From Bryobacterales bacterium (GTDB lineage: Bacteria > Acidobacteriota > Terriglobia > Bryobacterales > UBA6623): DNA of 64,000 nucleotides. The notes beneath the pieces were generated by a model that worked only from the letters and a program-made list of their open reading frames with translations, made no database searches and was not told where the DNA came from. Of this stretch, positions 3,752 through 57,586 are shown one piece after another (within the stretch, counting starts at the first letter, position 1; each line of letters opens with the position of its first letter). The translations under genes and the position numbers were made by a program. The stretch is taken from the NCBI GenBank assembly GCA_963422375.2, contig OY729428.2, positions 2,016,001 to 2,080,000 on the forward strand. Direction: 5' to 3'.

Positions 3752-4771
3752 CCTGATTACCAACGAACGTCAGCCGAGGATATGCTATACTGGAGGAGGT
3801 CGGAAATCTCTGACAGGAAAGGGGATAGCAGCTGAAACGCAATCGCGTGCAATTCCAGAAGGGACTCAGCCTGGGCAAGTTCCTGCAGCGCTACGGCAGC
3901 GAGGGGCCATGCGAGCAGGCCGTCTTCAAGGCCCGCTGGCCGGACGGCTTCCGCTGCCCGGAGTGCGGCTCCCGACGGCACTGCCGCATCCGCTCCCGCA
4001 AGCTCCGGCAGTGCCATGCCTGCCACCGCCAGAGCTCCCTCGTCGCCGGCACGCTCTTCGCCGCCACCAAGCTGCCGCTGACCGTCCGGTTCCTGGCTAT
4101 GCACCTGCTGACGCAGGGCCAGCACGGCGTTTCGTCGCTGGAACTGGCGCGGCAGCCGGGCGTGAGCCGGAACACGGCTTGGAAGATGAAGCACAAGCTC
4201 TTGCAAGTGATGAAGGAGCGCGACGAGCGCCTGCCGCTGGGCGGCATCGTGCAGGTGGACGACGCTTACTGGGGCGGGGAGCGGAGCGGCGGCCAGCGCG
4301 GGCGCGGCGGGCAAGACGCCGTTCGTGGCCGCCGTGCAGGTCAGCGCCGCCGGCCAGGATGCTCATGAGCAGCGTGGCGGGCTTGCGCAAGAAGACGCTG
4401 GCAGCGTGGGCCGGGCGGCACTTGCAGCCCGGCACGAAAGTGCATTCCGACGGCCCGGCCTGCTTCCGGGGCGTGGCCGGCGCCGGCTGCGAGCACGTGC
4501 CGACCGTCACCGGAGGCGGGCAGCGGAGCTGCGCGGATTCCCGCTTCGTCCGGGTCAGAACGATGCTGGCGCACGTCAAGCAGTCCCTGGCGGGAACCTG
4601 CCATTCGTTCGACGGCAAGCACCTGCCGCGCTACCTCGCCGAGTTCCGCTACCGCTTCAACCGCCGCTACGATCTGCAGGCGCTGGTCCCCCGCCTGCTC
4701 CACGCCTCCGTGCGCACCCCGCCCATGCCTTACCGCCTCCTAACCTTGGCTGAGTCTTGTGGGTAATCAGG
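3752..4771 (+). mobile_element. IS1595-family element (ISSod11-like), 1020 bp, inactive
   Basis: IRL cctgattaccaacgaacgtcagcc versus IRR reverse complement cctgattacccacaagactcagcc (19/24 identical). 8-bp TSD tccggaaa at 3744-3751 and 4772-4779. Confidence 0.93.
3832..4766 (+). pseudogene. IS1595-family transposase with two frameshifts
   Basis: RWPDGFRCPEC zinc ribbon, VQVDDAYWGG, GKTPFVAAVQ, VHSDG and RYLAEFRYRFNRR are spread over three frames, with shifts near 4310-4355. Confidence 0.9.
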
Positions 4772-5299
4772 TCCGGAAATACCCTGTAGGCGACGACGGC
4801 CTCGATCTCAGACTCGGAGCCGGACGCCGAGGACGAAAGGCCTCGGCGACCGGAAAGCCTCGCTCCGGGAGAGCCGAGGCGCCGCACCGAGATGGTGAAC
4901 TCCAAGTCCCGTTCCCGCGCCAGGTCGAGCAGCTCCTGCTTCATCTCCGCGCGATCGAGGCCGTCGCGCGGCTGGACAAACGGGTTCGAGGGCGCCGGGC
5001 CCGAGCCGCGGCGGCTGCCGGTACTGCGCGGGATGCCTTGGACCGGGCTGCGCGTGGGGAGCAGAGTCTTCAGCAGCCCGTTCTGCACGAGCTCCGTCCG
5101 GCGAGCCGGCACCCCTTCGTTGTCGATACGATAGCCGCCCAAGAGCGGCACCTCACCGTGCCTGTCGGCGTGCGGGTCGTTGGCCACGCCGAGAAACCGG
5201 GGAAGGACACGCGAGCCGAGCCGGTCCTGGAAAGGGTTTGCCATCCGGCGGGAGATTCGCTCGTATCAGGACTCCGCGACGACGGGAGCCTTCATCGCG

Positions 5300-5888
5300 A
5301 GCAGGCGCGGCGCCAAGACCTGATGCACCAAGTACGTTGCTGCTCTTCCCGGCCGAGGTGATGATGGCCCGCACCCACTCGTCGTAGGGCCGGTCGGAGT
5401 GCAGCTTCTCCTTCAGCCAGTACGTGGAAGAGCTCTCTGCCGCGACCCATCTTGCCGTTGGCGCGAAAGAGATCCATGTAAAAGTAGGCCCACTTCTCGC
5501 TGAATTCCTCGCGGGCAAGCAATTCGTCGATCTTGCGGCTGCGCTTGCCGCTCGAATCGTCCTCCATGAACTCGCGGATTTCGGGCCGAGTCGGAATGCG
5601 CCCGACGAGATCCAGCTGCACTCGGCGAAGGAATTCGAGGTCGCCGGACGGCGGGGCATGCGGTATGCCGTCGCTCGCGATCTTCCCGAATATATGGTCG
5701 TCGACGAAATTGCGCCGAACGGCGGGCTTCGTTGCGACGGCCTCCGACACTGACACGACGCGCTGCGTTACCTCGGTGGCCACGGCACGGGAATCTCGGG
5801 CCTCCCGCAGCGGCTCGCGGTCCGCCGACTGTCCGAGGACTACAGCCGCGGTCGAGAGCACGAGGAGAATGTGTCTTGGAACCCGCAT
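5300..5888 (-). pseudogene. DUF1549 (PSD1-type) protein, 5' remnant, frameshifted and truncated
   Basis: NFVDDHIFGK...EFLRRVQLDLVGRIPT...KIDELL; +1 frameshift near 5424 continuing as YWLKEKLHSDRPYDEWVRAII; ends abruptly at the TldD remnant. Confidence 0.75.
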
Positions 5889-6124
5889 TGAGTCGCCGCT
5901 GGCATTATTGCAAGATTCCGGGGCCCAACGGCGTTCCTCGCCGACGGAATTCGACGGAAATGCGCCGGCATTCCGAGGCTGTTTCGGGGAATCGATCAAA
6001 GGCCCTCGATGGCGCGAGCCCTGCGAGCCCAGCCTCGTAGCCGGAGCGCCGGCGGGCTGCCGGCACGGGCGCATGCTGGCCCTCCCAGCGTTGAGCGGCC
6101 GAACCGCTTTGCTAGCCTTTGCTC

Positions 6125-7783
6125 ATGCACCGTGCGCTCCTAGCTGCCGCCGCCCTGCTGACAGGCTCGATCGCCGCCAGCGACAGCCCCGACCTAGAGG
6201 TCGTGAGCCGAATTAAGCAAGAGGCCTACGACAACAGCCAGGTAATGGACCACCTGTTCCGGCTCGTGGAAGTCTACGGCCCGCGAATCACGAACTCGAG
6301 CGGATTCATGGGCGCGGCCGAATGGGCCGCGGAGACGATGGAGGGCTGGGGCCTCGAGAACGCGAATCTGGAGGAGTGGGGGCCGTTCGGGCAGGGCTGG
6401 TCACGGGAGTACTTCTCGGTCCACCTGACGGCGCCCCAGTACGAGCAGCTGATCGGCGTTCCCATGGGCTGGAGCCCCTCCACCGACGGCAAGCTGACCG
6501 GCCAGCCGGTACTGGCCCCCATCCGGCGGGACGGGCGCCTGCCCCGCGACGAGCAAGCGGTCGACGAATACATCGCCGAGTGGAAGGGCGAGCTCTCCGG
6601 GGCGATGGTGATGATCAGCGACCCGAAGAGGCTCCGGCCCCAGAGCCGCCCGGCCTTGCACCGCTTCTCGGGTTCCGAGCTGCAGGAGGTCGCCAAGGCG
6701 AGGCCGGCGTCCCCTCCCGTCGACTACCTGGATCCGGATTTGGAGATTCCCGGGGCCCCCGAGGACCGGCGCGCATTCATGGTCAAGGCCCCGCGCTGGT
6801 TCCGCGAGCACCGCTCACAGGAGCGGCGCAGGATCCAGTCCAAGCTTAACGCGTTCCTGGTCTCCGAGGGTGTCAGGCTGGTCCTCCACCCCGCCGCCCG
6901 GGGCGACGGCGGCACAGTGTTCCCGCCTCGCTCGGGCAGCCGCCACGTCGAGGACGCCGGGCCGCCGCCGTCAATCGCGCTGACTCCCGAACACTACAAC
7001 CGCATCTACCGGCTGATCGACAAGGGGGTCGGCGCGACGATCGAGGCCGAAGTCCGCACCACCGTGTACCGCGAGACTCTCGACTCGGTGAACGTCGTCG
7101 CGGAAATCCCGGGCACCAGCAAGGCCGACGAGCTCATCATGCTCGGTGGGCATCTCGACTCGACGGCCGCCGCGCTCGGCGCCACTGACAACGGGGCGGG
7201 CTGCGCGGTCATGATGGAGGTCGTTCGCATTCTCAAGGCGCTCGACCTGCCGCTGAAGCGGACCGTGCGCATCGCGCTTTGGGGCGGGGAAGAGCAGGGC
7301 CTGCTGGGTTCGGAGGCCTACGTCAAGAAGCACTTCGGAAACTCCGAGACGATGGCGCTGACTCAGAAGCACGCCAAGCTCTCGGCGTACTTCAACGTCG
7401 ACAACGGGACCGGGAAGATTCGCGGCGTGTACCTGCAGGGCAACGACCGCGTACGGTCGATCTTCCGGCAATGGCTTTCCCCGTTCCAAGACATGGGGGC
7501 CTCCACCCTGAGCATTCGCGATACCGGAGGCACGGACCACCTATCCTTCGACGCGGTCGGACTGCCCGGCTTTCAGTTCATTCAGGATCGGATCGAATAC
7601 GAGACCCGGACGCACCACTCGAACATGGACGGCTACGACCGCGCCCAGTCCGCCGACCTGATCCAAGCGTCGATCATCGTCGCCACGTTCGTCTATCACG
7701 CGGCCAACAGGGACGAGATGATTCCAAGGAAGCCGCTGCCGCGGCCCCAGCCCAAGACCAAGCCGGAGCAGAAGCCCGAATAG
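6125..7783 (+). CDS. M28 family metallopeptidase (carboxypeptidase Q-like), secreted
   Basis: GGHLDS, GATDNGAG, GEEQGLLGS, GTDH and THH motifs; signal peptide. Confidence 0.9.
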   Translation: MHRALLAAAALLTGSIAASDSPDLEVVSRIKQEAYDNSQVMDHLFRLVEVYGPRITNSSGFMGAAEWAAETMEGWGLENANLEEWGPFGQGWSREYFSVHLTAPQYEQLIGVPMGWSPSTDGKLTGQPVLAPIRRDGRLPRDEQAVDEYIAEWKGELSGAMVMISDPKRLRPQSRPALHRFSGSELQEVAKARPASPPVDYLDPDLEIPGAPEDRRAFMVKAPRWFREHRSQERRRIQSKLNAFLVSEGVRLVLHPAARGDGGTVFPPRSGSRHVEDAGPPPSIALTPEHYNRIYRLIDKGVGATIEAEVRTTVYRETLDSVNVVAEIPGTSKADELIMLGGHLDSTAAALGATDNGAGCAVMMEVVRILKALDLPLKRTVRIALWGGEEQGLLGSEAYVKKHFGNSETMALTQKHAKLSAYFNVDNGTGKIRGVYLQGNDRVRSIFRQWLSPFQDMGASTLSIRDTGGTDHLSFDAVGLPGFQFIQDRIEYETRTHHSNMDGYDRAQSADLIQASIIVATFVYHAANRDEMIPRKPLPRPQPKTKPEQKPE

Positions 7784-7833
7784 GCGGCCGCCCACGTTCC
7801 CGGGGCGGCTCCTCGGCCGTTCCCGGCCCGGCG

Positions 7834-8382
7834 CTAGAGGTCGTACTGAGCCAGCGTGGATTCCCAGCGCCCTTGGGCTTTCAGCACGAGCTCGACGACC
7901 TCGCGGATCGCGCCGTGCCCGCCGTGGCTCTTGGTAACGAGATGCACGCAGTCGATGACTTCCGGGCGGGCGTTGGCCGGGGCGACGGCCAGACCGGCTC
8001 GCTTCAGGAGGGGCAGGTCCGTGACATCGTCCCCGACGTACGCCACCTGCTCGGCTGCGAGGCCGGCGTCCTCGAGAATCGAAGCGAACGACCCGAGCTT
8101 GTCGGTCCGACCTTCGACGAGGTATTTCATGCGCGCCGACCGGGCGCGCTCGCGAACGGCCAGGCCGCCGCGCCCCGTGATGATCCCGGTGTCGATGCCT
8201 GCTCGACGGATCCATGCGAGCGCGATGCCGTCGTGGCAGTCGAAGGCCTTTGTTTCCGCCACCGTGCCGTCAGGCCCGGGAAGGAAGTAGATCGTGCCGT
8301 CCGTGAGAACCCCGTCGCAATCCATCAGGAGGAGGCGGATGCGGGACGCCCGGTCGCGCAGCGACTCGCTGGTTTCGCCCAT
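7834..8382 (-). CDS. kdsC: KDO 8-phosphate phosphatase (HAD, YrbI/KdsC family)
   Basis: DCDGVLTDG, IITGR, YVGDDVTD, GGHGAIRE. Confidence 0.9.
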   Translation of the reverse strand: MGETSESLRDRASRIRLLLMDCDGVLTDGTIYFLPGPDGTVAETKAFDCHDGIALAWIRRAGIDTGIITGRGGLAVRERARSARMKYLVEGRTDKLGSFASILEDAGLAAEQVAYVGDDVTDLPLLKRAGLAVAPANARPEVIDCVHLVTKSHGGHGAIREVVELVLKAQGRWESTLAQYDL

Positions 8383-8654
8383 CGGCTCCTTTATCGCATG
8401 CCGACGACAGCAGTCCCCCAGCGCTCGGAACGACTCCCCGCGGACGACGCGACGCGCCGCGGGGCATGACGCCCGGCAGCAGCTCCGCGATTCGCTATGA
8501 TCAAGGGCAGTCGCGCGCGGCAGGCCCCTAGCTTGGCTCAGAGCGTCGCCGCGGCTTCCCCTCCCATCCGCGCGTCCTAGAGGAGACCAGGCCGTAACCT
8601 ACAGGGGACCGGTTGGGTGTTCAAGCTTTCCATAGACAGGAGACCACAACGAGA

Positions 8655-9653
8655 ATGGCTGCCAGAGTTGCAATTAACGGGTTCGGCCGCATCGGACGGA
8701 ACGTCTTCCGCGCCCAAATGGGCAATCCCGACGTCGAGGTCGTCGCGATCAATGACATCACGGACAGGGCGACGCTTGCGCACTTGCTGAAGTACGACTC
8801 CGTGCTCGGTAACCTGGACGCGAACGTGGCCGCGACCGAAGACGGGCTCCTCCGGGTGGGCGACCAGGAATTCCGGGTCTTCTCGGAGCGCGACCCCGCA
8901 AGGATTCCCTGGGACTCCGTCGGGGCCGAGGTCGTGGTGGAGTCGACCGGGCTCTTCACCAAGCGCGAGATGGCCGCCAAGCACCTTGGCGGCAGCGTGA
9001 GGCGCGTGGTCGTGTCGGCCCCGGCGAAGGGCGAGGACATCACCGTGGTGCTCGGGGTCAACGACTCCCAGCTCGATGACAGCCACGAGGTGATCTCGAA
9101 CGCCTCCTGCACCACGAACTGCCTCGCGCCGGTCGCCAAGGTGCTGCACGACCAGTTCGGCATCGTGAAGGCCACGATGACCACGGTTCACAGCTACACC
9201 AACGACCAGCGGACGCTCGACCTGCCGCACAAGGACCTGCGCCGGGCCCGCGCGGCGGCACTCAACATGATTCCGACCAAGACCGGCGCGGCTGCGGCGA
9301 TCGGTCTCGTGATGCCGGACCTGGAGGGCAAGTGCGACGGTTTCTCCATTCGAGTGCCCACCCCGAACGTGTCCGTCGTCGACCTCGTGGTGGAACTGAG
9401 TCAGGGCGTCACCAAGGAACAGGTCAACGGTGCGCTCCGCGAGGCCGCCGAGGGCCAGCTCAACGGCATTCTCGCGTACACCGAGGAGCCTCTGGTCTCC
9501 AGCGACTTCATGCGCAACCCCCACTCGTCGATCGTGGACGGAGCGATGACCCGCGTCATCGGCGAGAACATGGTCAAGGTCCTCTCGTGGTACGACAACG
9601 AGTGGGGCTACTCGAACCGCGTGGTCGACCTGGTCAGCAAGCTGGCCGCCTGA
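8655..9653 (+). CDS. gap: Glyceraldehyde-3-phosphate dehydrogenase
   Basis: INGFGRIGR, SNASCTTNCL, WYDNEWGY; ATG 8655 follows an AGGAG element. Confidence 0.98.
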   Translation: MAARVAINGFGRIGRNVFRAQMGNPDVEVVAINDITDRATLAHLLKYDSVLGNLDANVAATEDGLLRVGDQEFRVFSERDPARIPWDSVGAEVVVESTGLFTKREMAAKHLGGSVRRVVVSAPAKGEDITVVLGVNDSQLDDSHEVISNASCTTNCLAPVAKVLHDQFGIVKATMTTVHSYTNDQRTLDLPHKDLRRARAAALNMIPTKTGAAAAIGLVMPDLEGKCDGFSIRVPTPNVSVVDLVVELSQGVTKEQVNGALREAAEGQLNGILAYTEEPLVSSDFMRNPHSSIVDGAMTRVIGENMVKVLSWYDNEWGYSNRVVDLVSKLAA

Positions 9654-9702
9654 GGGACCCCGCGGACGGCCGACCGCACACAGTGCTTGGCATCGCGCGC
9701 AG

Positions 9703-10884
9703 ATGACACTCCGGCAGCTGGACCAACTGGCGCTGCGCGGCAAGCGCGTGTTCGTGCGCGTGGACTTCAACGTCCCGCTCGACAAGGAGTCTGGGACGAG
9801 CATCACCAGCGACACGCGGATCCGCATGGCGCTGCCGACGATCCGAACGCTACTGGACCAAGGCTGCTCGCTGGTGCTCGCGTCACACCTCGGAAGGCCT
9901 AAGGGCCAGCCGAATGCGAGGATGCGCCTGGCCCCGGTGGCGCGCAGGCTGGCCGAGCTTCTTGGTCGACCTGTCCGCCTGGCTCCGGACTGCGTTGGGG
10001 CGGAGGCGGAGGCGATGGCCGGGCGGCTCCAGTCGGGAGAAGTCCTGCTGCTCGAGAATCTTCGCTTCCATTCCGGGGAGGAGGCCAACGATCCTGGCTT
10101 CGCTCGCGCGCTGGCCTCGCTCGCCGGTGCCTACATCAATGACGCCTTCGGCACGGCCCACCGGACGCATGCGTCGACTACAGGGGTTCCTGCGCTACTA
10201 GACCACAAGGCGGCAGGCTTGCTGATGATGCGGGAACTCGAGAACCTCTCGCATGCGATCTCCGCGCCCGCGCGGCCTTCCCTCGGCATCATCGGGGGCG
10301 CGAAGATCTCAGGCAAGATCGACGTGATCCGCAACCTCCTTAACGTGACCGAGCGGGTGCTGATAGGCGGCGCAATGAGCTACACCTTCCTGCGTGCCCA
10401 AGGCGTCAGCACGGGGTCGTCGCTGGTCGAGGCGGACCGAGTCGACATGGCTCGGGATCTCCTCGGGCTCGCGAACGGCCGGATCGTTCTGCCGGTCGAC
10501 CACGTCATCTCCCAGCGATTCCGCGCGGACGCGCCGACGCGCATCGTTCGGGGCGGAGTTCCTGACGGCTGGATGGGTCTGGACATCGGACCGAAGACGG
10601 TCGAGAACTACGTGGCCGCTATCGGCGCGGCCGAGCTAATCATCTGGAACGGCCCCATGGGGGTGTTCGAGCTGAAGCCTTTCGCTGCGGGCACGGTCGC
10701 GGTCGCTCGGGCTGTCGACGAATCGTCCAAGGCGGCATTCAGCGTTGTCGGGGGCGGGGATTCCGAGAGGGCAATCCGAGTTGCGGGCGTCGGCGACAAC
10801 ATCAGCCACATTTCGACCGGCGGGGGCGCCTCGCTGGATTTTCTGGCGGGAAAGACGCTGCCGGGCGTCGAGGCCTTGCGCTGA
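9703..10884 (+). CDS. pgk: Phosphoglycerate kinase
   Basis: RVDFNVP, SHLGRP, LLENLRF, NDAFGTAH, WNGPMGVFE, STGGGASL. Confidence 0.98.
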   Translation: MTLRQLDQLALRGKRVFVRVDFNVPLDKESGTSITSDTRIRMALPTIRTLLDQGCSLVLASHLGRPKGQPNARMRLAPVARRLAELLGRPVRLAPDCVGAEAEAMAGRLQSGEVLLLENLRFHSGEEANDPGFARALASLAGAYINDAFGTAHRTHASTTGVPALLDHKAAGLLMMRELENLSHAISAPARPSLGIIGGAKISGKIDVIRNLLNVTERVLIGGAMSYTFLRAQGVSTGSSLVEADRVDMARDLLGLANGRIVLPVDHVISQRFRADAPTRIVRGGVPDGWMGLDIGPKTVENYVAAIGAAELIIWNGPMGVFELKPFAAGTVAVARAVDESSKAAFSVVGGGDSERAIRVAGVGDNISHISTGGGASLDFLAGKTLPGVEALR

Positions 10885-11189
10885 GGGGGCGGCACGTAGC
10901 ACGCAAGCGCAGCCATCGTCGGAAACCGCGCCCGTGGCAGGCGCTCTCCGCTCGTATTCTTCAAACTGTTCCGCCCAGCTGCTGGCGTCGCACCGGCAGC
11001 TCCAGCGCTGCTGCCAGAGTCGCCGGGCAGAATCGACTGGCTGGCGCGTCCACGCGATCCGTCTAGTCGCTGCGGCAGCAGGTGAGGGGCACCCAATCGG
11101 CACTTCCTCCCGGGAATCCCGGCATACGAGAGCCCGGCATCTCGGGTTGCGGGAGACACCGGCCGGCTCTGAAGAGTTGACCTAGAGGC

Positions 11190-11330
11190 GTGTCTCCGCT
11201 CGAGTTCATCGTCAAGTGGAAGGCAGCGCAGCTTACGGAACGGGCGGCGGCCCGGTCCCATTGCAATGATCTCCGCCGGATGCTCGGCGAGCCGACCCCG
11301 GCCGAGGCTGATCGGTCCGGAAGCTGGTAT
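11190..11330 (+). pseudogene. N-terminal remnant of an MmeI-like (type IIL/IIG) restriction-modification enzyme
   Basis: MSPLEFIVKWKAAQLTERAAARSHCNDLRRMLGEPTPAEADRSGSWY resembles the family start (EFIxKW...ERxxxQxHFxDLCxLLGEPxP). Similarity stops after about 47 codons. Confidence 0.7.
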
Positions 11331-11654
11331 CGCATCGTCGACCACGCAACGCCAGCCAATCGCCTCCTTGGTGGAGCCATTCCTTTGCGGAGTCGACCAG
11401 CCAACTTTCCCGCCTCGCCAGAGAGGCCCGAGACCTCGCCCCCCGCTGGACTCGGGACCGGTCGCCTGGCGATACGTCGCCGCTGGAATCCAGGAATGCG
11501 CCAGTCGGACCCTACGGAATGCGAAGTTCGCCGGCCTAATGCATGAGGACACCCGTACCTGCACATAGTCTGGCAGGGGGCTCCCTTCACGCCCGCGCGG
11601 ACGCGGTTCAATTCTGCACTTGCAACTCACTGCTATCATGCTCAGGGCAGCATC

Positions 11655-13013: not shown

Positions 13014-13410
13014 GGCCCCGGCCGGCTTTCGAGTCCCGCTCATGCACGGACGGTACCGGCGATTCGACAGATCGGACGGCGGGCCGGGCGAGATCGGAGC
13101 GCCGAGTGGCGTCGCCGGACGCTCCGCTTCGCGAGTTCTCGACCACCCGCAGTAAGTAGGGGTCTAGCAGCCTTCGATCCGGTCGCAGACGCGCGCAACG
13201 CTCGTCCTAGGCGCTGTACCCGCGCCTCGAATCGAATGCATGGCGTTGCCACCGCTGCCGCGCCCAGCAGTTCCTGCACTCGAAGCCGCTCGCGCTGCAC
13301 CCCGGCTGTTGCAATCACGTTCCTTGGAGTGGGCCGGAGCTCCGCGAGAGATAGCCGATTTCGGCTGCTAGACTCGCGAGAAGCTCTACGATTCCGCTGG
13401 GCCCGCTCGC

Positions 13411-15031: not shown

Positions 15032-15329
15032 CTCACGGTCTGCCGACGCTTCGCCAAGCGAATTCTCTCGAACAGCGCCCATGCGGGCAGCCGGAGCAAC
15101 AGGCCTCACGGAGCCAGCATCCGGCGACCTCTACCCGGCATGGTCCAGCCGCCTCCGGACATTCGAAAGGAACGCCGGTACCGATCCGGGCAGTCGAGGC
15201 AAGTCCCGCCTGCACGTCGTACGCCGACGAACTCCGCAAGCTTAGACCGCTAGTCTAGGCCAATCCGCGTGCCGGCGATGGTCCGGCATGAAGTCTGCAC
15301 GAGGCGCGTAGGAATCCCACTGATGGAAA

Positions 15330-15561
15330 TGTCTAGGCACAGGTCCAGGCCCTTCGCGGAAACCAGCCGAAAGGGCCTCGGAGCTGCCGCATGGCTTCGG
15401 AGTCAGTGATCAACGATCTCGAGTATCGCGGTCTGGACCGAGGAGCGGAGCGAATGATCGGGCTGGCAGTGCTGGCGGGGAACGCGCAGCGAGTGGGCCG
15501 GATTCTGTGCGACAGAGAGAGCGAGCGTCTCAATGCGAGACCGTTTCTGCTGGCTGCATAG
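15330..15561 (+). pseudogene. ISNCY-like transposase, C-terminal remnant
   Basis: ESVINDLEYRGLDR...GLAVLAGNAQRVGRIL...LAA-stop resembles the ISNCY ending ESAINxLExxGLDRC...ALAVLARNxQRLG. Confidence 0.55.
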
Positions 15562-15597
15562 GCAGCCTGCAGCGATCTTGATTACCCAGAATTGAAA

Positions 15598-17123
15598 GGG
15601 AATTATATATCTGAGTGCCGAGGGAATCAAGTTGGCAAATTATCAAACCATAATAAGATTCCATATTTCTTCCGAATTTCCGTTGAAATTCTGTGGTGTT
15701 TCTTGGTAGAATAGTTCCAGTATGGGATACCGTAAATGAAGAAACAAGGTCCCGGGAAGTGGTTCCGTAAAGGCATCACATTGATTGAAGTGATCGCCAT
15801 GTTCCGCGATGACGAATCCGCGGAAAAGTGGTTCGCCTCCATGCGCTGGCCGGACGGTCCCGCGTGCCCCCGCTGCCGCGGCTCCAGCGTGCAGTCCGGC
15901 GCGGCCCACCCTTCGATGCCGTACCGTTGCCGCGGCTGCGGCAAGCGCTTTTCCGTGCGCACCGGCAGCGTGACGGCCGACACCGAGCTCGGCTACCGCA
16001 CCCGGGCCGTCGCCCTGTTCCTGCTGACCACCGGCATCAAGGGCGTCTCGAGCATGAAGCTGCACCGCGACCTAGGCATCAGCCGGAAGTCGGCCCGGCA
16101 CCTGGCGCACCGCATCCGCGCGTGCCGGGAGCGGGATCGGGGCCTGTTCGCCGGCCCGGCGGAGGTGGACGAGACCTACGTCGGCGGCAAGGAACGCAAC
16201 AAGCACGAGAGGAAGAAGGCCCGCGCCGGGCGCGGGCCCGTCGGCAAGACCCCGGTGGCGGGGGCGCGGGACCGCGCCACGAACGCAGTGGCCGCGCGGC
16301 CGCTGCCGGGCACCGCCAAGGGCGACCTGCAGGGCTTCGTGCGCGCCCGCGTCGCGCCGGGCGCGCAGGTCCGCTCCGACGAGGCGGCGGCCTGCGCCGG
16401 CATGGCGGAGTTCGCGCACGAAGCCGTCAGGCACTCCGGCGGCGAGTACGTGCGCGGGGCGGCGCATGCGAACGGCATCGAATCGTTCCGGTCCCTGTTC
16501 AAGCGCGGCCTGTACGGAACCTATCACCGGATGAGCGTCCGTCATCTCGGCCGCTACCTCACGGAGTTCGCGGGACGGTGCAACGACCGCGACTGCGACA
16601 CGGCGGAACGGATGCGGCGCATGGCGCGGGGCTTGGTCGGCCGGACGCTGACCTGCCGGCAGCTGACCGGCAAGGCCGCGGTCGCGGCCTGAGCGGCGCC
16701 CGCCGCGCTGAGCGCGGCAGCCCGCTGCGGGCGCGCTCTTCACGCTCGGTGCGCTGCACGCTCGGTGCGAGGGGCGCACCGGATCCGGAATGCCCCGGTG
16801 CGACCCCGGTCCGGCCCGGACCGTCCATGCAGGCCGTCGAGCGCCGGGGATCCGCTGTCTTCGGCCCTCGCAGGGCCTGCAATCGGCTTGCAAGGGGTGC
16901 CCTGCCACCGCCAACCGGGTTCCAGCGGGGCAACCGGGGCATGCGAGGCGGCCTCTCTAGTCCCTTCCTCGTCAAATCCGCTGGCAGGCTCGATTCAGAT
17001 ACGATCCCACCCCTCTGTGCCTGCCGCGGCCGCACTCGAATGACCCGAGCTCGACACCGACCTCCCTGCTCACAGCAGTTCTAGTCGGACATGGCGTTGT
17101 CGGCACTCAGATATATAATTCCC
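15598..17123 (+). mobile_element. IS1595-family element, 1526 bp
   Basis: Perfect 24-bp terminal inverted repeats gggaattatatatctgagtgccga (15598-15621 and 17100-17123); 8-bp TSD aattgaaa at 15590-15597 and 17124-17131. Confidence 0.95.
15736..16692 (+). CDS. IS1595-family transposase; open frame but many conserved residues substituted
   Basis: RWPDGPACPRC and YRCRGCGKRFSV zinc ribbon, EVDETYVGG, SDE, NGIESF, GTYHRMS. Confidence 0.9.
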   Translation: MKKQGPGKWFRKGITLIEVIAMFRDDESAEKWFASMRWPDGPACPRCRGSSVQSGAAHPSMPYRCRGCGKRFSVRTGSVTADTELGYRTRAVALFLLTTGIKGVSSMKLHRDLGISRKSARHLAHRIRACRERDRGLFAGPAEVDETYVGGKERNKHERKKARAGRGPVGKTPVAGARDRATNAVAARPLPGTAKGDLQGFVRARVAPGAQVRSDEAAACAGMAEFAHEAVRHSGGEYVRGAAHANGIESFRSLFKRGLYGTYHRMSVRHLGRYLTEFAGRCNDRDCDTAERMRRMARGLVGRTLTCRQLTGKAAVAA

Positions 17124-17334
17124 AATTGAAACCCTGAAGAGACAGGATTCAGCAAGAGTTAGCAACTGAAATACAACTAGATATTCCCTCACAATTAGAA
17201 TGGTATATGAGGCGATGAATTCGGATCATTCGTCGTATTAATTTCCTTCTAAGGCTATTATACGGTGACGATTTATCGGCTCGCATCTCCGAAATATCAG
17301 GATCTTGTGACAAGCGCAATTTAGGCTTCCCGCC

Positions 17335-40706: not shown

Positions 40707-40726
40707 GTGTGCGTAAGTCCTTCTGC

Positions 40727-46515: not shown

Positions 46516-46562
46516 CGCGATCCGGCCGGCCCTCTGCCGGGCGCTTATACTCGGCTGCGACC

Positions 46563-47906: not shown

Positions 47907-47958
47907 TGGGGCCGCTTCGCAGCGCTTCCGTCCCCGGCCGGCGGGCTACGATAGGCGC

Positions 47959-50052: not shown

Positions 50053-50081
50053 CGCTCGGGGCGGGATGATACGCTAGCGAG

Positions 50082-51788
50082 GTGCCCGAGAACCGGCTGC
50101 CGAGCGCCGCCGCAGAAGAAGAAGCGAGCGGGCCCGGCGCCGGGCCAGAGGCGGCAGCTGAGGCCGAGCACGCCGAAGTCGTGCGGCGGGCCGGCGTCGT
50201 GAGCGCGTTCGTGCTGCTGAGCCGGGTCACGGGGCTGGTGCGCGAGATCGTGTTCGCCGGCCTGTTCGGGGCCGGCATGCGGTACGACGCCTTCGTCGCG
50301 GCATTCCGGATTCCGAACCTTCTCCGGGACCTGCTGGCGGAGGGCGCCCTCTCGGCGGCCTTCATCACGACGTATTCGCGGAAGCTCTCGGAGAAGAGCC
50401 GGGAAGAGGCGTTCGCTCTGTCCAACCGGCTGGCCACCCTGCTGGTGCCGCTGGTGGCGGCGATTTGCCTAGCAGGGGCGTGGTTCGCTCCCTGGCTCGT
50501 CCGGCAGATCTTTCCCGGATACGCGGCCATCGAGGGGAAGTTCGACCTGACGGTCCTGCTGACCCGGATCATGATGCCCTTCCTGCTGTTCATCGCCTTG
50601 GCGGCGAAGGCGATGGGCGTGCTCAACTCCCACGGCACATACGGCATTCCCGCCCTTTCTTCCGCTTTCTTCAACGTCGTCTCGGTGACGGCGGGGCTGG
50701 CGCTGGGCTACCTGGCCGGGCCGGCGCTGGGGGTCGAGCCGATCGTGGGCATGGCGATCGGCACGCTGCTGGGCGGGTTCGTGCAATACGCCTGCCAGGT
50801 TCCGAGCCTGCGGGCGACTGGCCTACGGTTCCGCCCCATGGGCGGCATCAGGGATCCCGGAGTCCGCCAGGTCTTGCGCCTGATGGGACCGGCCGCGATC
50901 GGGGCGGCGGCCGTGCAGGTCAACGTGATGGTCAACAGCGTCTTCGCCTCGCGGGTGACGGACGACGCCGGGCAGATCATCGACGGGCCGGTATCGTGGC
51001 TGGGCTATTCGTTCCGGTTCATGCAAATGCCCCTGGGCCTGTTCGGCATCGCGATCGGATCGGCGCTGCTGCCGATGATCGCCCAGGCGGCGGCGGCCGG
51101 CGAGACCGCCAAGTTCCGGCACTTGCTCTCGCGCTCCCTCGGCTTGGTGTTCCTCCTCACCATTCCGTCGGCGGCCGGGCTGTTCGCCCTCAGCCGGCCG
51201 CTGATCGGCATCGTCTACGAGCGCGGCCAGTTCGTCGCCTTCGACACCGAGCAGACCGCCGTCGCCCTGTCGTTCTACTGCCTCGGCTTGGTCGGGTACG
51301 CGGCCACGAAGGTCCTCACGCCCGCGTTCTACGCGCTGCAAGACGTGCGGGTCCCGATGACCGTGTCCGTCCTGTCGATCCTGCTGAACTTCACCCTGAA
51401 CAAGGTGTTCATCGACGTTCTCGGATTGGGTCACTGGTCCCTTGCGCTGTCCACGTCGCTGGTCGCGACACTCAACTTCTCAATCCTCCTGAGCGTCATG
51501 CGCTCGAGGATCGGAGGCATCCACGGCGAGCACCTCGCGGCCTCGGGCCTCCGGATCGCGGCCGTGTCGGGCCCAATGGGCGCCTGCTGCTGGGGCGGCG
51601 CGCGCTGGGTCGAAGCGGCGCTGGGCCCGGGCACTTTCGCCGGGCGATTCGCGGCGGTCGCGGTCGGCGTGCCGCTGGGCCTCGGCGTGCTCTACGGCGT
51701 ATTCCGGGCGCTCAACCTGCCCGAATACGAGACCGTTCGGACGGTCGTCCGCGAGCGGCTCGCGAAGGGATGGAACCGGGACCGCTAG
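50082..51788 (+). CDS. murJ: Lipid II flippase MurJ (MviN)
   Basis: SRVTGLVRE, AFRIPNLLRDLLAEGALSAAF, FMQMPLG, YERGQF. Confidence 0.95.
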   Translation: MPENRLPSAAAEEEASGPGAGPEAAAEAEHAEVVRRAGVVSAFVLLSRVTGLVREIVFAGLFGAGMRYDAFVAAFRIPNLLRDLLAEGALSAAFITTYSRKLSEKSREEAFALSNRLATLLVPLVAAICLAGAWFAPWLVRQIFPGYAAIEGKFDLTVLLTRIMMPFLLFIALAAKAMGVLNSHGTYGIPALSSAFFNVVSVTAGLALGYLAGPALGVEPIVGMAIGTLLGGFVQYACQVPSLRATGLRFRPMGGIRDPGVRQVLRLMGPAAIGAAAVQVNVMVNSVFASRVTDDAGQIIDGPVSWLGYSFRFMQMPLGLFGIAIGSALLPMIAQAAAAGETAKFRHLLSRSLGLVFLLTIPSAAGLFALSRPLIGIVYERGQFVAFDTEQTAVALSFYCLGLVGYAATKVLTPAFYALQDVRVPMTVSVLSILLNFTLNKVFIDVLGLGHWSLALSTSLVATLNFSILLSVMRSRIGGIHGEHLAASGLRIAAVSGPMGACCWGGARWVEAALGPGTFAGRFAAVAVGVPLGLGVLYGVFRALNLPEYETVRTVVRERLAKGWNRDR

Positions 51789-52573
51789 CTCGGCGGAGCG
51801 CCAGTATCGAGCTCCGCGGGAGGCGGCAGGGGAGGAAACGCCTTGAGCGCCTCCTGCAAGTCGGACGGCAGATCCTCGTACGATTTCATTAGGGCATCCG
51901 TCGTGACGGTCCCGCTCTCGCGGACCGCGTTCCCGTGCAGGGTGTCGAGCGCGGCGCCGAACTCGGTGTCGCGGGAGAACTCCGGGGGAGATCCGAAGAG
52001 CAGCAGCCGGAGGCTGTCGGTGAGCCGCTCCGCCCAAATGCGCGCCAGCAGCTTGGCGTCTTCGGTCTCGGACAGGATCATGTCGTCCGACGTGACCGCC
52101 ACGATTTCCTGCGCCACCTCGGCATCGGCTGTCTCCTTCTGCAAGATGCGCGGCATCCCGCCATCGGCTCCGGTGTCGATCGTGATGACGCGCCCCGGCG
52201 TCTCGGCCAGCTCCCCGACCACCTCGTTGAGGCTCTCAACCACCTGCTTCGCCCGGGTCGCCCCGGCGCCTCCGGCCATAGGATCGCTGATCTCGAACAG
52301 CGTCAGCGGGCCGAGCTGGATCGCGATCGGCACGCCAGCCGTCAGGCCCTGGTTGGGAAGGAGCTCGTACCGCGCGTCCGGGACCTCGAGCGTCAGGGCC
52401 GAGGGAGCGTGCTGCAGGAAGACCACGGCCGCGACGACCGCCAGGGCGAGGCCTAGGGCGATGATGGAAACCGGCTTCGACAGCGGCTGGCGCTTCACGC
52501 CTGCCTTGAGCGCCTCGAATTCAGATCCCCGTGACGGGACGTCCGCGGACGGCGATGGCTGCGGTTCCGACAT
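51785..52573 (-). CDS. Hypothetical membrane-anchored protein
   Basis: One N-terminal TM followed by an acidic soluble domain; coding-like codon use. Confidence 0.7.
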   Translation of the reverse strand: MSEPQPSPSADVPSRGSEFEALKAGVKRQPLSKPVSIIALGLALAVVAAVVFLQHAPSALTLEVPDARYELLPNQGLTAGVPIAIQLGPLTLFEISDPMAGGAGATRAKQVVESLNEVVGELAETPGRVITIDTGADGGMPRILQKETADAEVAQEIVAVTSDDMILSETEDAKLLARIWAERLTDSLRLLLFGSPPEFSRDTEFGAALDTLHGNAVRESGTVTTDALMKSYEDLPSDLQEALKAFPPLPPPAELDTGAPPS

Positions 52574-52739
52574 CTAGCGATTCGCGCCCGATCTCTCATT
52601 GTGACCGCTGCGGGCGCGAATGTCGAATGGGTAGGCCGGGGCGCTCGGCGGGCTGTGGGCGATCCGCAATAGCGGCGGGTGGAGGTGCGGGGAAGGAGCG
52701 TACAATGGCGGCGCGGGCGCTGCCCGGCAAGCCGATTCC

Positions 52740-53621
52740 ATGCGCGCCGATCCCTCCCTCCGGAACGCGCCCCGCCCGGTGCCGGTCTACCGGGCGGAGG
52801 CGCGAACCATACTCAGTCGAACTAGGGGGTTCATCGCCCGGGCCGGCTTCACCCACTCGCTGAATCCGGCCCGGAATTGCGTCTACGGCTGCACCTACTG
52901 CTACGTGCCGACCTTGCGCGTTTACGGGGGACTGAAGGCCGCCGACTGGCAGCGGTGGGGCCGCCACACTACGTACAAGGCTAACGCCGCCGAGCTGCTG
53001 CGGCGCGAACTCCGGCCCGGGCAGCTGATCTACTGCTCGCCGCTGGTGGACCCGTATCAGCCCGCCGAGGCATCGGAGCGCGCGATGCCCGCCCTGCTCG
53101 AGGCGCTGTGCGCCAGCCCCCCGGCAGCATTCGCGCTGCAAACCCGCGGGACGCTAGCGCTGCGCGACACCGGCCTGCTGCGCCGCTTGGCGAACCGGAC
53201 CCGGCTGCGGATCAGCTTCTCGCTCACCACCGACCGCGACGACGTGCGCCGACTCTACGAGCCGCACTGCGAGTCGATCAACGCACGGGTGCGCGCCATG
53301 AGGCAGCTCGCGGGCGCGGGGCTCGCCGTGCACTGCACGTTGGCACCGATCCTGCCGTGCGATCCCCGGCGCCTGGCCGACCTCGCGCTGCAGTCAACTG
53401 GCCGGGACGTGATCGCCGATCCGCTGCACAGCCGCGAGGGCAAGCCGCAGGGCGCGACCACGCGGGCCGAGGGCCTGCGCGTCAGCGAGGCGCAAGGCTT
53501 CCGCGAGTGGCACAGTCCCGCGTTCCAAGCCGAGGTCGTGGCTAGGATCCGCTCGCGGGTCGAGGCCGCCGGGCGGGCGCTGGGCGTCGGCGAGGAGGGC
53601 TTCCGCATTCTGGCTCGTTGA
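52740..53621 (+). CDS. Radical SAM protein, spore-photoproduct-lyase-like (Rv2578c-type)
   Basis: SLNPARNCVYGCTYCY (CxxxCxxC), DPYQPAE, LQTR, YEP. Confidence 0.85.
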   Translation: MRADPSLRNAPRPVPVYRAEARTILSRTRGFIARAGFTHSLNPARNCVYGCTYCYVPTLRVYGGLKAADWQRWGRHTTYKANAAELLRRELRPGQLIYCSPLVDPYQPAEASERAMPALLEALCASPPAAFALQTRGTLALRDTGLLRRLANRTRLRISFSLTTDRDDVRRLYEPHCESINARVRAMRQLAGAGLAVHCTLAPILPCDPRRLADLALQSTGRDVIADPLHSREGKPQGATTRAEGLRVSEAQGFREWHSPAFQAEVVARIRSRVEAAGRALGVGEEGFRILAR

Positions 53622-54078
53622 GAAGCCGGCGGGGAGGGCGGGCATTCGTGCGAGCCAACCCAGGCGATTCGGCCGCTGCACGCAGGCAGCATGTCACAGC
53701 GCGGCGGCCGCCGCGGAGGGGCGGACCGAGGAACGGCCGGTCAGTTCAAGCCGACGAGTCGAGGCCTGATCCAGCAGTCCCCGAGAAACGCTCGGATCGC
53801 GGTATGCATCGCAACGAGAGCGAACAAGAGTAGCCGCTCGGGCCGGTGCGAGGCTCGGCGCGTAGCAAGAACTCAGCAATGCCGCGGACTTCCTCCGGTA
53901 TGCGCTGCATTGGGTTGCGGTTGCGGCGCCGTTCGCATGGCCCGCGGCGACAATCTCGCTGGATGACAGCTCGTTCGGCGGGCGGTCGAGACCCGCGCGG
54001 CCGCCCGAACCAGCAGCCCAAGACGTCTCGACTTCGGTTGCTCCGGGCGGAGTAGGGCGTGGTCAGTACAATCGGGAC

Positions 54079-54405
54079 GTGCGGGTTCGTCTCGTCAAAA
54101 TCGCTCATGCGCGCTCCGGCGACAAGGGCGACACCGCCAACATCGGACTCATCGCGATCGAGCCTCGCCACTACCCGGCGATACTGCGGGAAGTCACGCC
54201 CGCACGGGTCAAGGCGCATTTCGGCACGCTCTGCCGGGGGCCTGTGGAGCGGTTTGAGCTTCCGAACATCGGGGCTGTCAACTTCCTGTTGCACGGAGCC
54301 CTTGCTGGCGGCGGCACGCTGTCGCTGCGCACCGATGCCCAGGGCAAGACGCTGGGGGCGGCCCTGCTGCGCCTGGAGGTCGAGGTCTCCGCCGACGAGC
54401 TCTGA
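54079..54405 (+). CDS. AtuA-related small ferredoxin-fold protein
   Basis: AHARSGDKGDTANIG, VERFELP, LAGGG..SLRTDAQGK. Confidence 0.85.
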   Translation: MRVRLVKIAHARSGDKGDTANIGLIAIEPRHYPAILREVTPARVKAHFGTLCRGPVERFELPNIGAVNFLLHGALAGGGTLSLRTDAQGKTLGAALLRLEVEVSADEL

Positions 54406-54486
54406 GCGAGGCCCGGGCGGAATCGCGGAGCTGCGCCGACGGCGCGCCTCCACTGTGCTAGCGTGAGAAATAGAGAAGACAAGCAA

Positions 54487-56160
54487 TTGAGCAAGGAACT
54501 CCGAGTCATCCCTATCGGCGGCTTGGGCGAGTTCGGCATGAACATGATGGCGCTGGAAAGCGGCGCCGACATGATCCTGATCGACGCCGGCACTTCGTTC
54601 CCGGGTCCGGAGCGCCCGGGTATCGATGTCGTCGTGCCCGACCTAGAGTACGTTCTGGCCAACCGCCAGAAAGTGCGCGGCCTAGTCCTCACCCACGCCC
54701 ATCTGGACCACATCGGCGCGGTCCCCTACGTCTTGGAGCAGTTGCAGGTACCCGTCTACGGCACTGCCTTCACCTTGGGCTTGGTGCGCAAGCAGCTGTC
54801 CGAGTTCACCCTGCAGAACCCGGCGAAGTTGACCACCGTCAGCCCCGGCGAGGCGTTCTCGCTCGGCTGCTTCGCAATCGAGGGCATCCACGTTACGCAC
54901 AGCACGGTGCAGTGCATGGCCTTGGCGATCTCGACCCCGGCCGGATGCGTCCTGCACACGGGCGACTTCAAGATCGACCAGACCCCGGTGGACGGTCGCG
55001 AGTTCGACTTCGCGAAGTTCGCCGAGTACGGCCGGCGCGGCGTCCTGCTGCTCTGCTCGGACTCCACGAACGCCGACGTGAGCGGCTTCAGCAAGTCGGA
55101 ACGCGCTGCCGGCGCGGCGCTGGACCGCGTCTTCGCCGAAGCGAAGCACGCCCTTTTTTTTACCTGCTTCTCGTCCGCCACGCACCGCATCCAGCAGATC
55201 GTTGACCATGCGGTTTCCTACCGGCGCAAGCTGGCCTTCGTCGGTCGCAGCGTGGCGCGATCCTGCGACATCGCGAGGGACCTCGGACTGCTCAAGATTC
55301 CTCCGGGAACCGTGGTCCGCCCGCAAGACTTGAAGTCCTACCGGCGTCTCGACCGGGTCACCGTGATCGCCGGATCGCAAGGAGAGCCCCTGTCGTCGCT
55401 GTCTCGGGCCTCGCTAGGCCGGCACAATACCGCTGAAATCCTCGAAGGCGACACCGTTGCGTTCAGCGCCAAGATGATTCCCGGCAACGAGACCACCATC
55501 AACCGCATGGTGGACCACCTGTACCGCCGGGGCGCGAAAGTCCTGTACGGCGACGCCTTGCCGGATCTGCACGTAACCGGCCATCCCTGCCGGGAGGAGC
55601 TCAAGCTGCTGCTCAATCTCGTGCGGCCGCGCTATTTCGTGCCGATTCACGGCGATTACCGCCAGCTGGCCCGGCACCGGCTGCTGGCGAGGGCGGTCCG
55701 CGGCTCGAAGTTGGACGAAGCGATCCTTCTCGAGAACGGCCAGGTGCTGCAGTTCGACGAGTTCGGCGCCCGCGTGCTGGAAGATAAGGTTCCCGTGGGC
55801 CATCGCCTCATCGACGCGGGGACGGGCGGCGAGGTACTGGCGGACGCGGTCATGCGCGACCGGCGACGGCTCTCCGAATTCGGGATTCTCCTTCCGGTGG
55901 TCACGGTCGACGAACGCAAGGGGGAGGCGACCAACGTCGAGATCATTTCTCGCGGCTTCGTCGATTCCGGACAAGTGGGAGAGATTGCGGACGGTGCCGC
56001 GGATGCGATTCGAAGCGCGGTCGTGCGATGCACGGCAGAGGAGCGCGGAGACCTCGGCGTGATGGAAGCGAGAATACGGGATTCGGTCCGGCGCTTCATC
56101 GCTCGCAAGACCTCGCGCCAGAGCCAGCCGCTGGTCGTGCCGGTGCTGCTCGAAGGATAG
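54487..56160 (+). CDS. rnj: Ribonuclease J
   Basis: PIGGLGEFGMN, THAHLDHIG, HTGDFKID, DSTNA, GSQGEP, HVTGH. Start TTG 54487 or GTG 54463. Confidence 0.95.
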   Translation: MSKELRVIPIGGLGEFGMNMMALESGADMILIDAGTSFPGPERPGIDVVVPDLEYVLANRQKVRGLVLTHAHLDHIGAVPYVLEQLQVPVYGTAFTLGLVRKQLSEFTLQNPAKLTTVSPGEAFSLGCFAIEGIHVTHSTVQCMALAISTPAGCVLHTGDFKIDQTPVDGREFDFAKFAEYGRRGVLLLCSDSTNADVSGFSKSERAAGAALDRVFAEAKHALFFTCFSSATHRIQQIVDHAVSYRRKLAFVGRSVARSCDIARDLGLLKIPPGTVVRPQDLKSYRRLDRVTVIAGSQGEPLSSLSRASLGRHNTAEILEGDTVAFSAKMIPGNETTINRMVDHLYRRGAKVLYGDALPDLHVTGHPCREELKLLLNLVRPRYFVPIHGDYRQLARHRLLARAVRGSKLDEAILLENGQVLQFDEFGARVLEDKVPVGHRLIDAGTGGEVLADAVMRDRRRLSEFGILLPVVTVDERKGEATNVEIISRGFVDSGQVGEIADGAADAIRSAVVRCTAEERGDLGVMEARIRDSVRRFIARKTSRQSQPLVVPVLLEG

Positions 56161-56262
56161 GGCGGCGGCAGGCCGACCACTCCTCACCCTCGCGGCACGA
56201 GGCGCTGCAGGCGATTCCACTCGTCGAGGTACTCCCGCCGATGCTCGTTGCCTTCCTGCAGT

Positions 56263-57531
56263 TCACTTAGGACTTTGATCGATATTAAGTTTCCAACTTC
56301 GTCGTGGATGTAGTTCGTAGTTCCAATCACCGTGGAACTCGTTCCGATGGAGCGACAGGGCGTCCATCTTCGCCTTCGTTACTGCCTCACCGGTCGGGTA
56401 CTTTCTATTGTCAAGTTCGGCTTTGACCGGAAGGCCGGCGGCTGTGCGCGTACCGCCGATCAAGTCGACAACGGTCTCAAATGTACGCAGTGGCTTGCCT
56501 CGCCAATTCTGCGTGACGTGGCAGAACAGGCGGCGCTCAATCTTATGCCATGGACTGGTCCCCGGCGGGAAGCGGCTGACGTGGATGCGAAGACATGTCC
56601 GGTCAGCGAACTTCTGCAGCCGATGCTTCCAGGCGCGAGAGCGATACCCGTTGCTACCGCCCGCATCGGCAGCGATGAACAGCTCGCCAGCCTCGGGGTA
56701 GCGGCGCTTCCCCGTCTCGTTCCACCACCGTCGCAGCGAGGCCGCGGCAAACGCGGGCGTGTCGTGATCACGTCCGACATGCACCCAGGCTTCGTTGCGC
56801 CCCATGTCATGGATGCCATACGGCATCGCTTTGCCGGACGAGTCCTTGGGAAAATCATGCACCAGTGATTTCCCGGGGCTCCCCTGCGGTTGCCATGCCC
56901 GCCCGCCGTTCTTGAATTCACCCGCCAGTTCCTTCTTCTCGGTGTCGACCGAGACCACTGGCTGACAACGTTGCGGGAAATCATCCGCCTTCGTATGGAT
57001 GTGCTCGAACTGCGCGTCCCGGTCGGGGCGGGTTGTCCCTTCGAGACTCTTGCGCACCGATTGCAGGCTGCAGCCAAGCTCGTGCAGTGAACCGCTCGCC
57101 GTCGTCGAACTCACCTGCCAACCCGCCTGCGACAACGCCGCCTGCGACAACGCCGCGGTGAGCTTCGCCCGACTCTTGCATGTCCAGCGCAACGGCGACT
57201 CCGGGTCACCGCGCGTCAACGGGTCGACCAGCTTCTCCAGCGCTTGCTCGATGCCCGGCCGCGACTGCTCGATGCCGGGCCGGGCGGCGCCCGGGCGGCG
57301 TATCCGACCGCGTTCAACACTGCCGGATTCCAGCTCTCGACGCCCCGCGCGGATGGCGCGGACGGTCGGGCGCGACAACCCAGTCGCGTCCGATACCAGC
57401 GCATCTCCCCCATACCCGATGGCACGCGACTCCGTCGCCGCCCATAGCCGACGCCCGCGCTCGTCGAGAAACGCTTCCACCGCCGCGTACTGCTCAACAA
57501 TTGTCGCTTCGAGTTCAAGATTGCGTCTCAT
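56263..57531 (-). CDS. ISAzo13-family transposase (Rhodopirellula-type DDE), degenerate
   Basis: LDERGRRLWA, TRGDPESPLRWTCKS, DRDAQF, SVDTEKKE, ADAGGSNG, PPGTS, FHGDWNY; contains a 15-bp internal tandem duplication (AALSQ twice). Confidence 0.88.
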   Translation of the reverse strand: MRRNLELEATIVEQYAAVEAFLDERGRRLWAATESRAIGYGGDALVSDATGLSRPTVRAIRAGRRELESGSVERGRIRRPGAARPGIEQSRPGIEQALEKLVDPLTRGDPESPLRWTCKSRAKLTAALSQAALSQAGWQVSSTTASGSLHELGCSLQSVRKSLEGTTRPDRDAQFEHIHTKADDFPQRCQPVVSVDTEKKELAGEFKNGGRAWQPQGSPGKSLVHDFPKDSSGKAMPYGIHDMGRNEAWVHVGRDHDTPAFAAASLRRWWNETGKRRYPEAGELFIAADAGGSNGYRSRAWKHRLQKFADRTCLRIHVSRFPPGTSPWHKIERRLFCHVTQNWRGKPLRTFETVVDLIGGTRTAAGLPVKAELDNRKYPTGEAVTKAKMDALSLHRNEFHGDWNYELHPRRSWKLNIDQSPK

Positions 57532-57586
57532 CGGATGATGAGAACACAAAACTCAGAACATGGAAATCTGATTTCCGACAACGCCC
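56270..57586 (-). mobile_element. ISAzo13-family element, 1317 bp
   Basis: 3-bp TSD tta at 56267-56269 and 57587-57589; imperfect terminal IRs sharing an inner tttcca; removing the element restores the exonuclease frame (CAG CTA AGT). Confidence 0.88.

Follow-up and report, generated by a model that had tools for sequence, protein, structure and literature searches.

Derived G/C alleles shared by dead insertion sequences of a Bryobacterales bacterium and their probable spread by gene conversion biased by short-patch mismatch repair

A 64-kb stretch of the genome of a Bryobacterales bacterium (G000:C2:2016001-2080000, hereafter the window) contains three damaged insertion sequences (ISs), namely, elements A and B of the IS1595 family and element C of the ISAzo13 family. 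The dead copies of these ISs share derived G/C alleles at codons in which an A or a T is conserved. We propose, with a probability of about two in three, that these alleles spread through gene conversion biased by short-patch mismatch repair, Vsr acting on T:G and MutY on A:G mismatches, a reading that is based on sequence comparisons. The genome of the window (G000; 6.0 Mb, 67% GC) is distributed over three contigs, and repeated DNA accounts for about 13% of the window. Other genomes (G003, G015, G021, and G046) were used for comparison.

Element A (positions 3752 to 4771, forward strand) contains the Pfam domains PF12760 and PF12762, is bordered by terminal inverted repeats and an 8-bp target duplication, and is present in 87 near-full copies in the genome. 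Element B (15598 to 17123, forward strand) is bordered by 24-bp inverted repeats and an 8-bp target duplication and is present in 79 near-full copies; its open transposase frame (15736 to 16692, forward strand; 318 amino acids) carries 9 of the 14 scored damaging alleles shared by the family. Element C (56266 to 57588, reverse strand; Pfam PF07592) is an open frame with 8 full and 3 partial copies. The original prediction, made from the window alone, listed 22 motifs in these elements and in an MmeI-like remnant that would each result from an A:T→G:C transition at a conserved residue. All 22 motifs are present at their reported positions, and the conserved A/T codon survives in sister copies for 19 of the 20 IS motifs. 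A substitution in AMHLL is not supported, the H being found in 86 of 87 copies of element A and in the closest homologue outside the genome (AIHLL).

The G/C allele of element A was detected in 63 of the 87 copies at the W→R codon of TVRFL (4087 to 4089, forward strand) and in 39 at the L→P codon of QPGV (4156 to 4158, forward strand), both in a CTGG context. Between positions 4455 and 4601 (forward strand), it was detected in 73 (SDGPA, L→P), 85 (FVRV, W→R), and 86 (GTCH, Y→C) of the 87 copies. The corresponding counts among the 79 copies of element B were 68 for YRTRA, 16 for KSARH, 28 for ESFRS (plus 22 copies with GGG), 52 for AACA, 32 for LTCR, 11 for GPAEVDE, and 21 for HANG. Among the 8 full copies of element C, the G/C allele was present in 6 (LGCSL, ELAG, IAAD, and IERRL), 7 (GIHD and SRFPP), or 4 (DTEKK) copies, and one copy located elsewhere in the genome retains most of the A/T alleles. 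The shared A/T→G/C changes are therefore confirmed as a real property of dead IS copies, and the predicted excess of T→C and A→G changes stands as a feature of entire families, since private A>G or T>C changes numbered only 1, 5, and 2 in the copies of the window. Sharing of the odd residues among copies had been regarded as a sign that they are ancestral; they are shared but derived. The pattern also includes A:T→C:G transversions, which were overlooked. Every copy of these families is damaged, each A copy at no fewer than 2 of 16 scored sites and each B copy at 1 or more of 14, and the frame is open in 36 of 87 A copies and 38 of 79 B copies. The claim that two damaged transposases are still open frames holds for the window copies of B and C; the window copy of A is frameshifted.

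The direction of the changes was determined in families A and B with 11 to 13 outside homologues per family, using missense variants at codons conserved in these outgroups. Polarization by the consensus alone masks the signal, as derived alleles are often in the majority; outgroups were required. For element B, polarization was performed on the 49 copies displaying at most 70 differences from the consensus, and the 30 more divergent copies were handled separately. Among changes present in 10 to 90% of the copies, A/T→G/C replacements outnumbered the reverse replacements by 20 to 2 in family A and by 16 to 1 in family B (36 to 3 in total), in contrast to singletons at the same codons (14 versus 30 and 11 versus 16, respectively; 25 versus 46 in total; Fisher P = 2e-9). 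Singleton rates per site were balanced (0.183 versus 0.164 and 0.187 versus 0.179), with an equilibrium GC content of 0.51 to 0.53, and the directional bias grew with the frequency of the alleles. The tallies across families cover all families that could be polarized by protein comparison, overlapping segments being de-duplicated only approximately. In these tallies, a frequency of 10% was reached by 103 of 935 T>C, 45 of 1014 A:T>C:G, 25 of 1329 C>T, 13 of 1732 C:G>A:T, 34 of 1797 C>G, and 4 of 1013 T>A changes. Since common variants are skewed and singletons are balanced, the bias lies in the spread of the alleles and not in their origin, and this conclusion includes the transversion class.

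The spread of T>C changes depends upon the following bases. In families A and B, T>C was common at 18 of 29 CTGG, 4 of 6 TAGG, and 4 of 20 GTGG sites versus 8 of 300 other T sites. The change was absent from 7 of the 29 CTGG sites, rare at 3, and common at 18, and the reverse C>T change at CGG never reached three copies at any of 85 sites. Across families, T>C was common at 22 of 52 CTGG sites, the effect being strongest before GG (40 of 111 sites, compared to 8 of 24 before AG, 10 of 54 before GA, and 17 of 476 before a pyrimidine). Likewise, A>C was common at 32 of 205 sites preceding another A versus 13 of 809 sites elsewhere. Other changes that destroy CTGG did not spread (T>G at 1 of 52 sites and changes of the first C at 0 of 92). 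As judged from these counts, the bias is mismatch-specific rather than general.

The copies exchange short tracts, of tens of bases on average, in a non-reciprocal manner, as shown statistically. The four-gamete test failed for 4120 of 4950 site pairs in family A (4159 to 4196 after shuffling of the columns) and for 16692 of 25878 site pairs in family B (about 20700 after shuffling). Linkage (r2) decreased from 0.20 at 1 to 3 bp to 0.05 at 4 to 20 bp and 0.016 beyond 80 bp, the background being reached by 40 to 80 bp, and tandem duplications of 8 to 11 bp are common to many copies. Pairs of copies carrying a two-copy allele displayed an excess of flank identity of 0.49 to 0.53 within 10 bp and of 0.20 to 0.37 at 11 to 25 bp, which fell to about 0 beyond 200 bp. 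A Moran-type simulation fitted tracts of about 25 to 50 bp, or up to 100 bp by linkage. Simulations on the sequence of element A, with one run per setting, reproduced both the class of untouched sites and the depletion of the reverse change with a motif bias of 0.5 to 1 and 10 to 20 conversions per site. Genomic distance did not predict the similarity of copies (rho = -0.005). The families display three of the features expected of GC-biased gene conversion, namely, non-reciprocal exchange, G/C alleles at higher frequency under unbiased mutation, and scaling with the opportunity for recombination.

The last of these features was established with the IS loci and a control set of 1742 open reading frames, which were taken from a 2.0-Mb portion of the nearest relative (G003; 6.9 Mb); 59 unclear matches were left out. 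Motif codons were changed at 91 of 9041 sites (1.0%) in 1091 intact genes, 16 of 426 (3.8%) in 58 single-copy broken genes, 52 of 272 (19%) in 40 matches with 1 to 7 partners, and 347 of 865 (40%) in 141 matches with at least 8 partners; counts from repeats are not independent, and some of the single-lesion genes may be young or miscalled. In the same four classes, C>T decay amounted to 0.6, 2.0, 2.2, and 1.8%. In the comparison with single-copy pseudogenes called for by the original prediction, the excess of the ISs was thus not matched. The non-motif T>C changes of these pseudogenes (2.5%) did not exceed C>T (2.0%; P = 0.37). The process also depends upon the length of homology, since pieces shorter than 450 bp contained 16 derived alleles versus 44 expected. 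In five internally deleted copies, the long arms contained 46 derived alleles (45.8 expected) and the short arms contained 3 (8.2 expected). A copy of element B that is 12% diverged carries the derived allele at 5 sites, all of which belong to the 11 hot sites among 29 (P = 0.004). At one of these sites, this copy retains its own letters 6 and 4 bp away, thereby bounding the patch to -6/+4 bp in this single case.

The genome encodes candidate enzymes for such a process. The mutS, mutL, mutS2, recA, and mutY (C2:826560 region) genes are whole, with mutS and mutL above the cut-off, and a vsr gene (locus L037, G000:C2:2578614) encodes a 145-residue open frame that matches E. coli Vsr (E = 1e-29) and retains the PD and HGCFWH motifs. 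Of the genes that the original prediction suggested checking, mutS, mutL, and vsr are whole; nucS was not found in this 96%-complete genome. The best mutT match was below the curated cut-off in all five genomes searched. vsr is a core gene, present in 30 of 31 genomes of the genus (none was found in G045), so that its presence does not separate genomes. It is an orphan with no adjacent methylase; in several genomes (also L140 and L283-L294), its neighbors are the same and encode a purine phosphorylase and a membrane protein. C5 methylases are encoded elsewhere in the genome, several of them broken, none beside vsr.

In the mechanism that we propose, families first grew to tens of copies while acquiring mutations devoid of G/C bias, as observed for singletons. 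Copies swap short tracts, tens of bases on average according to the linkage statistics, probably following RecA-mediated pairing over several hundred bases of homology and the formation of heteroduplex DNA. In the heteroduplex, T:G would be corrected to C:G with an efficiency graded by the 3' bases, and A:G would be corrected to C:G mostly before another A, in keeping with the observed patterns. The putative agents are the core orphan Vsr and MutY, acting with patches smaller than about 10 bp. The damaging alleles (W>R, L>P, Y>C, Q>R, and K>Q) sweep through the families, which accounts for damage in every copy while many frames stay open. Under this mechanism, the process is a side effect of housekeeping repair and not a dedicated anti-transposon system.

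A second IS1595 family was analyzed in G046 (40 of its 41 matches, G046:C1, loci L243-L282). A dead subfamily of 27 copies (nucleotide diversity of 1.4%, in-frame TAG in 24 copies) is mosaic, with 70 to 78% four-gamete failure beyond 10 bp. With the sister subfamilies used for polarization, alleles found in 3 to 24 copies comprised 15 A:T>C:G changes, 6 changes of all other kinds, and no C:G>A:T, versus 2 A:T>C:G and 19 other changes among alleles found in one or two copies (P = 9e-5). The occurrence of A>C without T>C in this species indicates that the two drives are separable, which fits with two mismatch-specific enzymes, the link to Vsr being unconfirmed. Mosaicism without drive characterized families with open frames in G021, where 14 copies are present, and in G046 (30 of 34 open), and the 9 copies in G015 displayed subfamily-type variation. 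As a separate observation, some of the G046 changes affect the same codons as in family A (K>Q and F>L).

Several observations weigh against conversion biased by Vsr and MutY. None of 19 TGG sites in the G046 subfamily displayed T>C despite Vsr and MutY proteins that look whole in this species; T>C may lack supply in this young family or may have another cause. No CCGG methylase was identified, and the sequence data do not separate T:G from A:C repair. Alleles at motifs showed neither significantly shorter linkage than other variants nor 3'/5' asymmetry, the simulations did not reproduce the singleton excess, and A>C was raised twofold among singletons. The signal was weak, and poorly polarized, in the non-coding part of element B. 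Intact genes displayed a twofold excess of motif changes (91/9041 versus 185/36086). Finally, a change of the same kind, an exception to the restriction to repeats, is found in the MmeI-like N-terminal remnant (11208 to 11330, forward strand), a single-copy sequence of 41 codons in which the AARSH and DLRR motifs fit, as proposed, with Q>R and C>R changes relative to the sole paralogue in the genome (61% amino acid identity). The remnant and the excess in intact genes indicate that a weak genome-wide component exists, and the latter suggests that the same bias is weakly at work throughout the genome. T before GG was not more depleted than T before GA at fourfold-degenerate sites (0.085 versus 0.069), and the spectrum of substitutions at these sites could not be polarized because the DNA identity to relatives is only about 80%.

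The original prediction favored either a mutator-like, GC-biased spectrum or a process targeting repeated DNA. A genome-wide mutator, present or past, that arose when MutT or mismatch repair was lost and was followed by multiplication of damaged copies in trans, could account for the excess in intact genes, the MmeI-like remnant, and the raised A>C singletons, and the low-scoring mutT matches would agree with it. This possibility is highly improbable and already largely refuted, since mutS and mutL are whole, singletons are balanced, and T>C equals C>T in pseudogenes at matched decay. Moreover, variants are not nested as descent demands, and the short and long arms of one insertion differ. The alternative of a process specific to repeats is supported insofar as the excess scales with copy number, but the data point to a biased spread of pre-existing alleles among copies rather than to an enzyme that would edit or silence the ISs. 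Editing triggered de novo by pairing, in which T or A would be altered directly in every copy and a donor allele would not be needed, as in a reversed form of repeat-induced point mutation (RIP), is unlikely, even though the effect is repeat-specific, motif-specific, and dependent upon homology length. The hot sites shared by the divergent copy of element B would fit if an extended context set the rate, and repeats with only 1 to 7 partners are already changed at 19%. However, CTGG sites are either untouched or common, and hypermutation of the motif simulated without bias, again with one run per setting, left no untouched site. In families of 2 to 5 copies, changes were mostly all-or-none across copies. 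Carriers of rare alleles share flanks, stops do not spread, CGG sites selectively lose the reverse change, and conversion is shown independently.

Generic GC-biased conversion by long-patch MutS/MutL repair, with a motif effect originating from mutation rates, would explain the roughly fourfold greater spread of non-motif T>C relative to C>T (57/808 versus 20/1103). It is also compatible with whole mutS and mutL genes and with a GC content at third codon positions of 0.85 versus 0.77 in the nearest relative. We consider it improbable because the bias varies with mismatch type, context, and species, T>C and A>C being driven in G000 and A>C alone in G046. In addition, singletons are not enriched at TGG, and a general bias of 0.1 overpredicts common non-motif T>C (42 to 62 of 300 in simulations, about 19 of 336 observed). 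Selection acting on the host, for the inactivation of transposases or the removal of a restriction site, would be in agreement with common alleles that strike conserved residues and with the absence of shared CTGG changes in younger open-frame families (0 of 15 sites in G021 and 0 of 19 in G046). It is very improbable, since changes creating stop codons reached three copies in 6 of 351 cases, whereas T>C before GG did so in 40 of 111. Erosion of a restriction site was rejected because T>C alone among the changes removes CTGG, whereas A>C creates it. Errors of assembly or base calling, linked to methylation or to mixing of reads among repeats, can resemble mosaic copies and motif-bound T/C differences. 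Such an artifact is just as remote, since both alleles occur at the same sites in contigs from two other runs of different studies, and W>R changes at tryptophans of intact single-copy housekeeping genes were not bound to the motif (19/1564 after C versus 16/1375 otherwise). The spectrum of G046 also differs.

The pattern is, in our view, real and reflects a variant of known processes. Fungal RIP is a repeat-dependent, context-specific process in which a dedicated methyltransferase-like enzyme introduces C→T changes anew in each copy and thereby inactivates transposons. The process described here resembles RIP in its repeat dependence, context specificity, and inactivation of transposons but differs in its opposite direction and in the spread of existing alleles; independent changes in each copy were not found. 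For Wolbachia, Cordaux in 2009 reportedly described gene conversion between ISs that are no longer functional as maintaining copies, and exchange of sequence between dead IS copies would be common to both cases.

Very-short-patch (VSP) repair by E. coli Dcm/Vsr and by V.NgoAXIV is similarly a one-way T:G→C:G correction that is context-bound and limited to a very short patch. CTWGG is the site of action of E. coli Vsr, which can also promote CTAGG→CCAGG changes (PMC2715241), and N. gonorrhoeae V.NgoAXIV was assayed on CTGG/CCGG (PMC6116569). Unlike in these systems, vsr is here an orphan core gene with no adjacent methylase, and its putative substrates are mismatches formed between copies of an IS, the correction of which would spread damaging alleles. 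MutY excises A from G:A mispairs, leading to A:G→C:G correction (PMC12606429), and this correction matches the A>C drive in G000 and G046. MutY is known as an antimutator, whereas here it would drive A>C through repeat families, a role that our literature search did not find. Lassalle et al. 2015 (PMC4450053) described a recombination-linked bias for G/C fixation in bacteria that can fix deleterious alleles. Their work deals with allelic recombination between strains, with MutS/MutL as the suggested agents, and its text lacks the words "insertion" and "VSP"; the process reported here is ectopic, occurs within one genome, and depends upon mismatch type and context. Our literature search, which did not extend to most subscription papers or to supplements, yielded no description of a drive through IS families that is specific for mismatch and context. 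New here are the gradient with copy number, the dependence upon homology length, the probable patch smaller than 10 bp, and the second species with A→C drive alone.

The existence of GC-biased gene conversion in bacteria and the identity of the enzyme behind it are unsettled matters, linked to the many genomes whose GC content exceeds that predicted from mutation. Within one genome, dead IS families provide about 90 recombining alleles, mostly free of selection, in which direction, context, and patch size are readable. This is a rare within-genome view of a GC-favoring process that is still debated in bacteria, and it points to two testable enzymes. It also reveals a copy-number-dependent self-crippling of transposon families with frames kept open, and open but damaged frames mislead both annotation and the consensus-based reconstruction of active elements. 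More tentatively, as a possibility that is less likely than not, housekeeping short-patch enzymes could drive GC-biased conversion in bacteria in general, in an enzyme-specific manner: at any pairing of repeats, Vsr and MutY would each leave its own signature, inactivating transposon families in proportion to copy number and setting the GC content of lineages. If this were true, the genus would offer a natural panel for the two drives, each varying independently of the other.

Other features of the elements were recorded. The start ATG of element A is CTG in 35 of 86 copies, and the stop codon of the element C transposase reads CGA in 2 of 8 copies, that of the window included, thereby extending the frame. 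A C:G→G:C change, TTC→TTG (F>L), was common at 6 of 90 such sites versus 28 of 1707 other C>G sites in family A and D-type segments, an excess unexplained by G/C preference. Families A and B contain many tandem duplications of 8 to 22 bp and microhomology deletions, often in 10 to 45% of the copies. Element B is nested within another repeated element (window positions 15400-15597 and 17124-17300), which has about 15 copies elsewhere at 70 to 73% identity, and nested insertions are common in this genome. A prophage-like region carrying C5 methylases and a collagen-like repeat protein is present in three copies that are 92 to 99.9% identical (C1:1-21509, C1:1824034-1844793, C2:1307817-1350163, and the ends of C3 in G000), the overlap of contig ends at this region being possibly due to assembly redundancy. 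No significant T>C excess was detected in this region, which may be under selection, and odd T at CGG was less frequent there (3/2384 versus 69/11804; P = 0.002).

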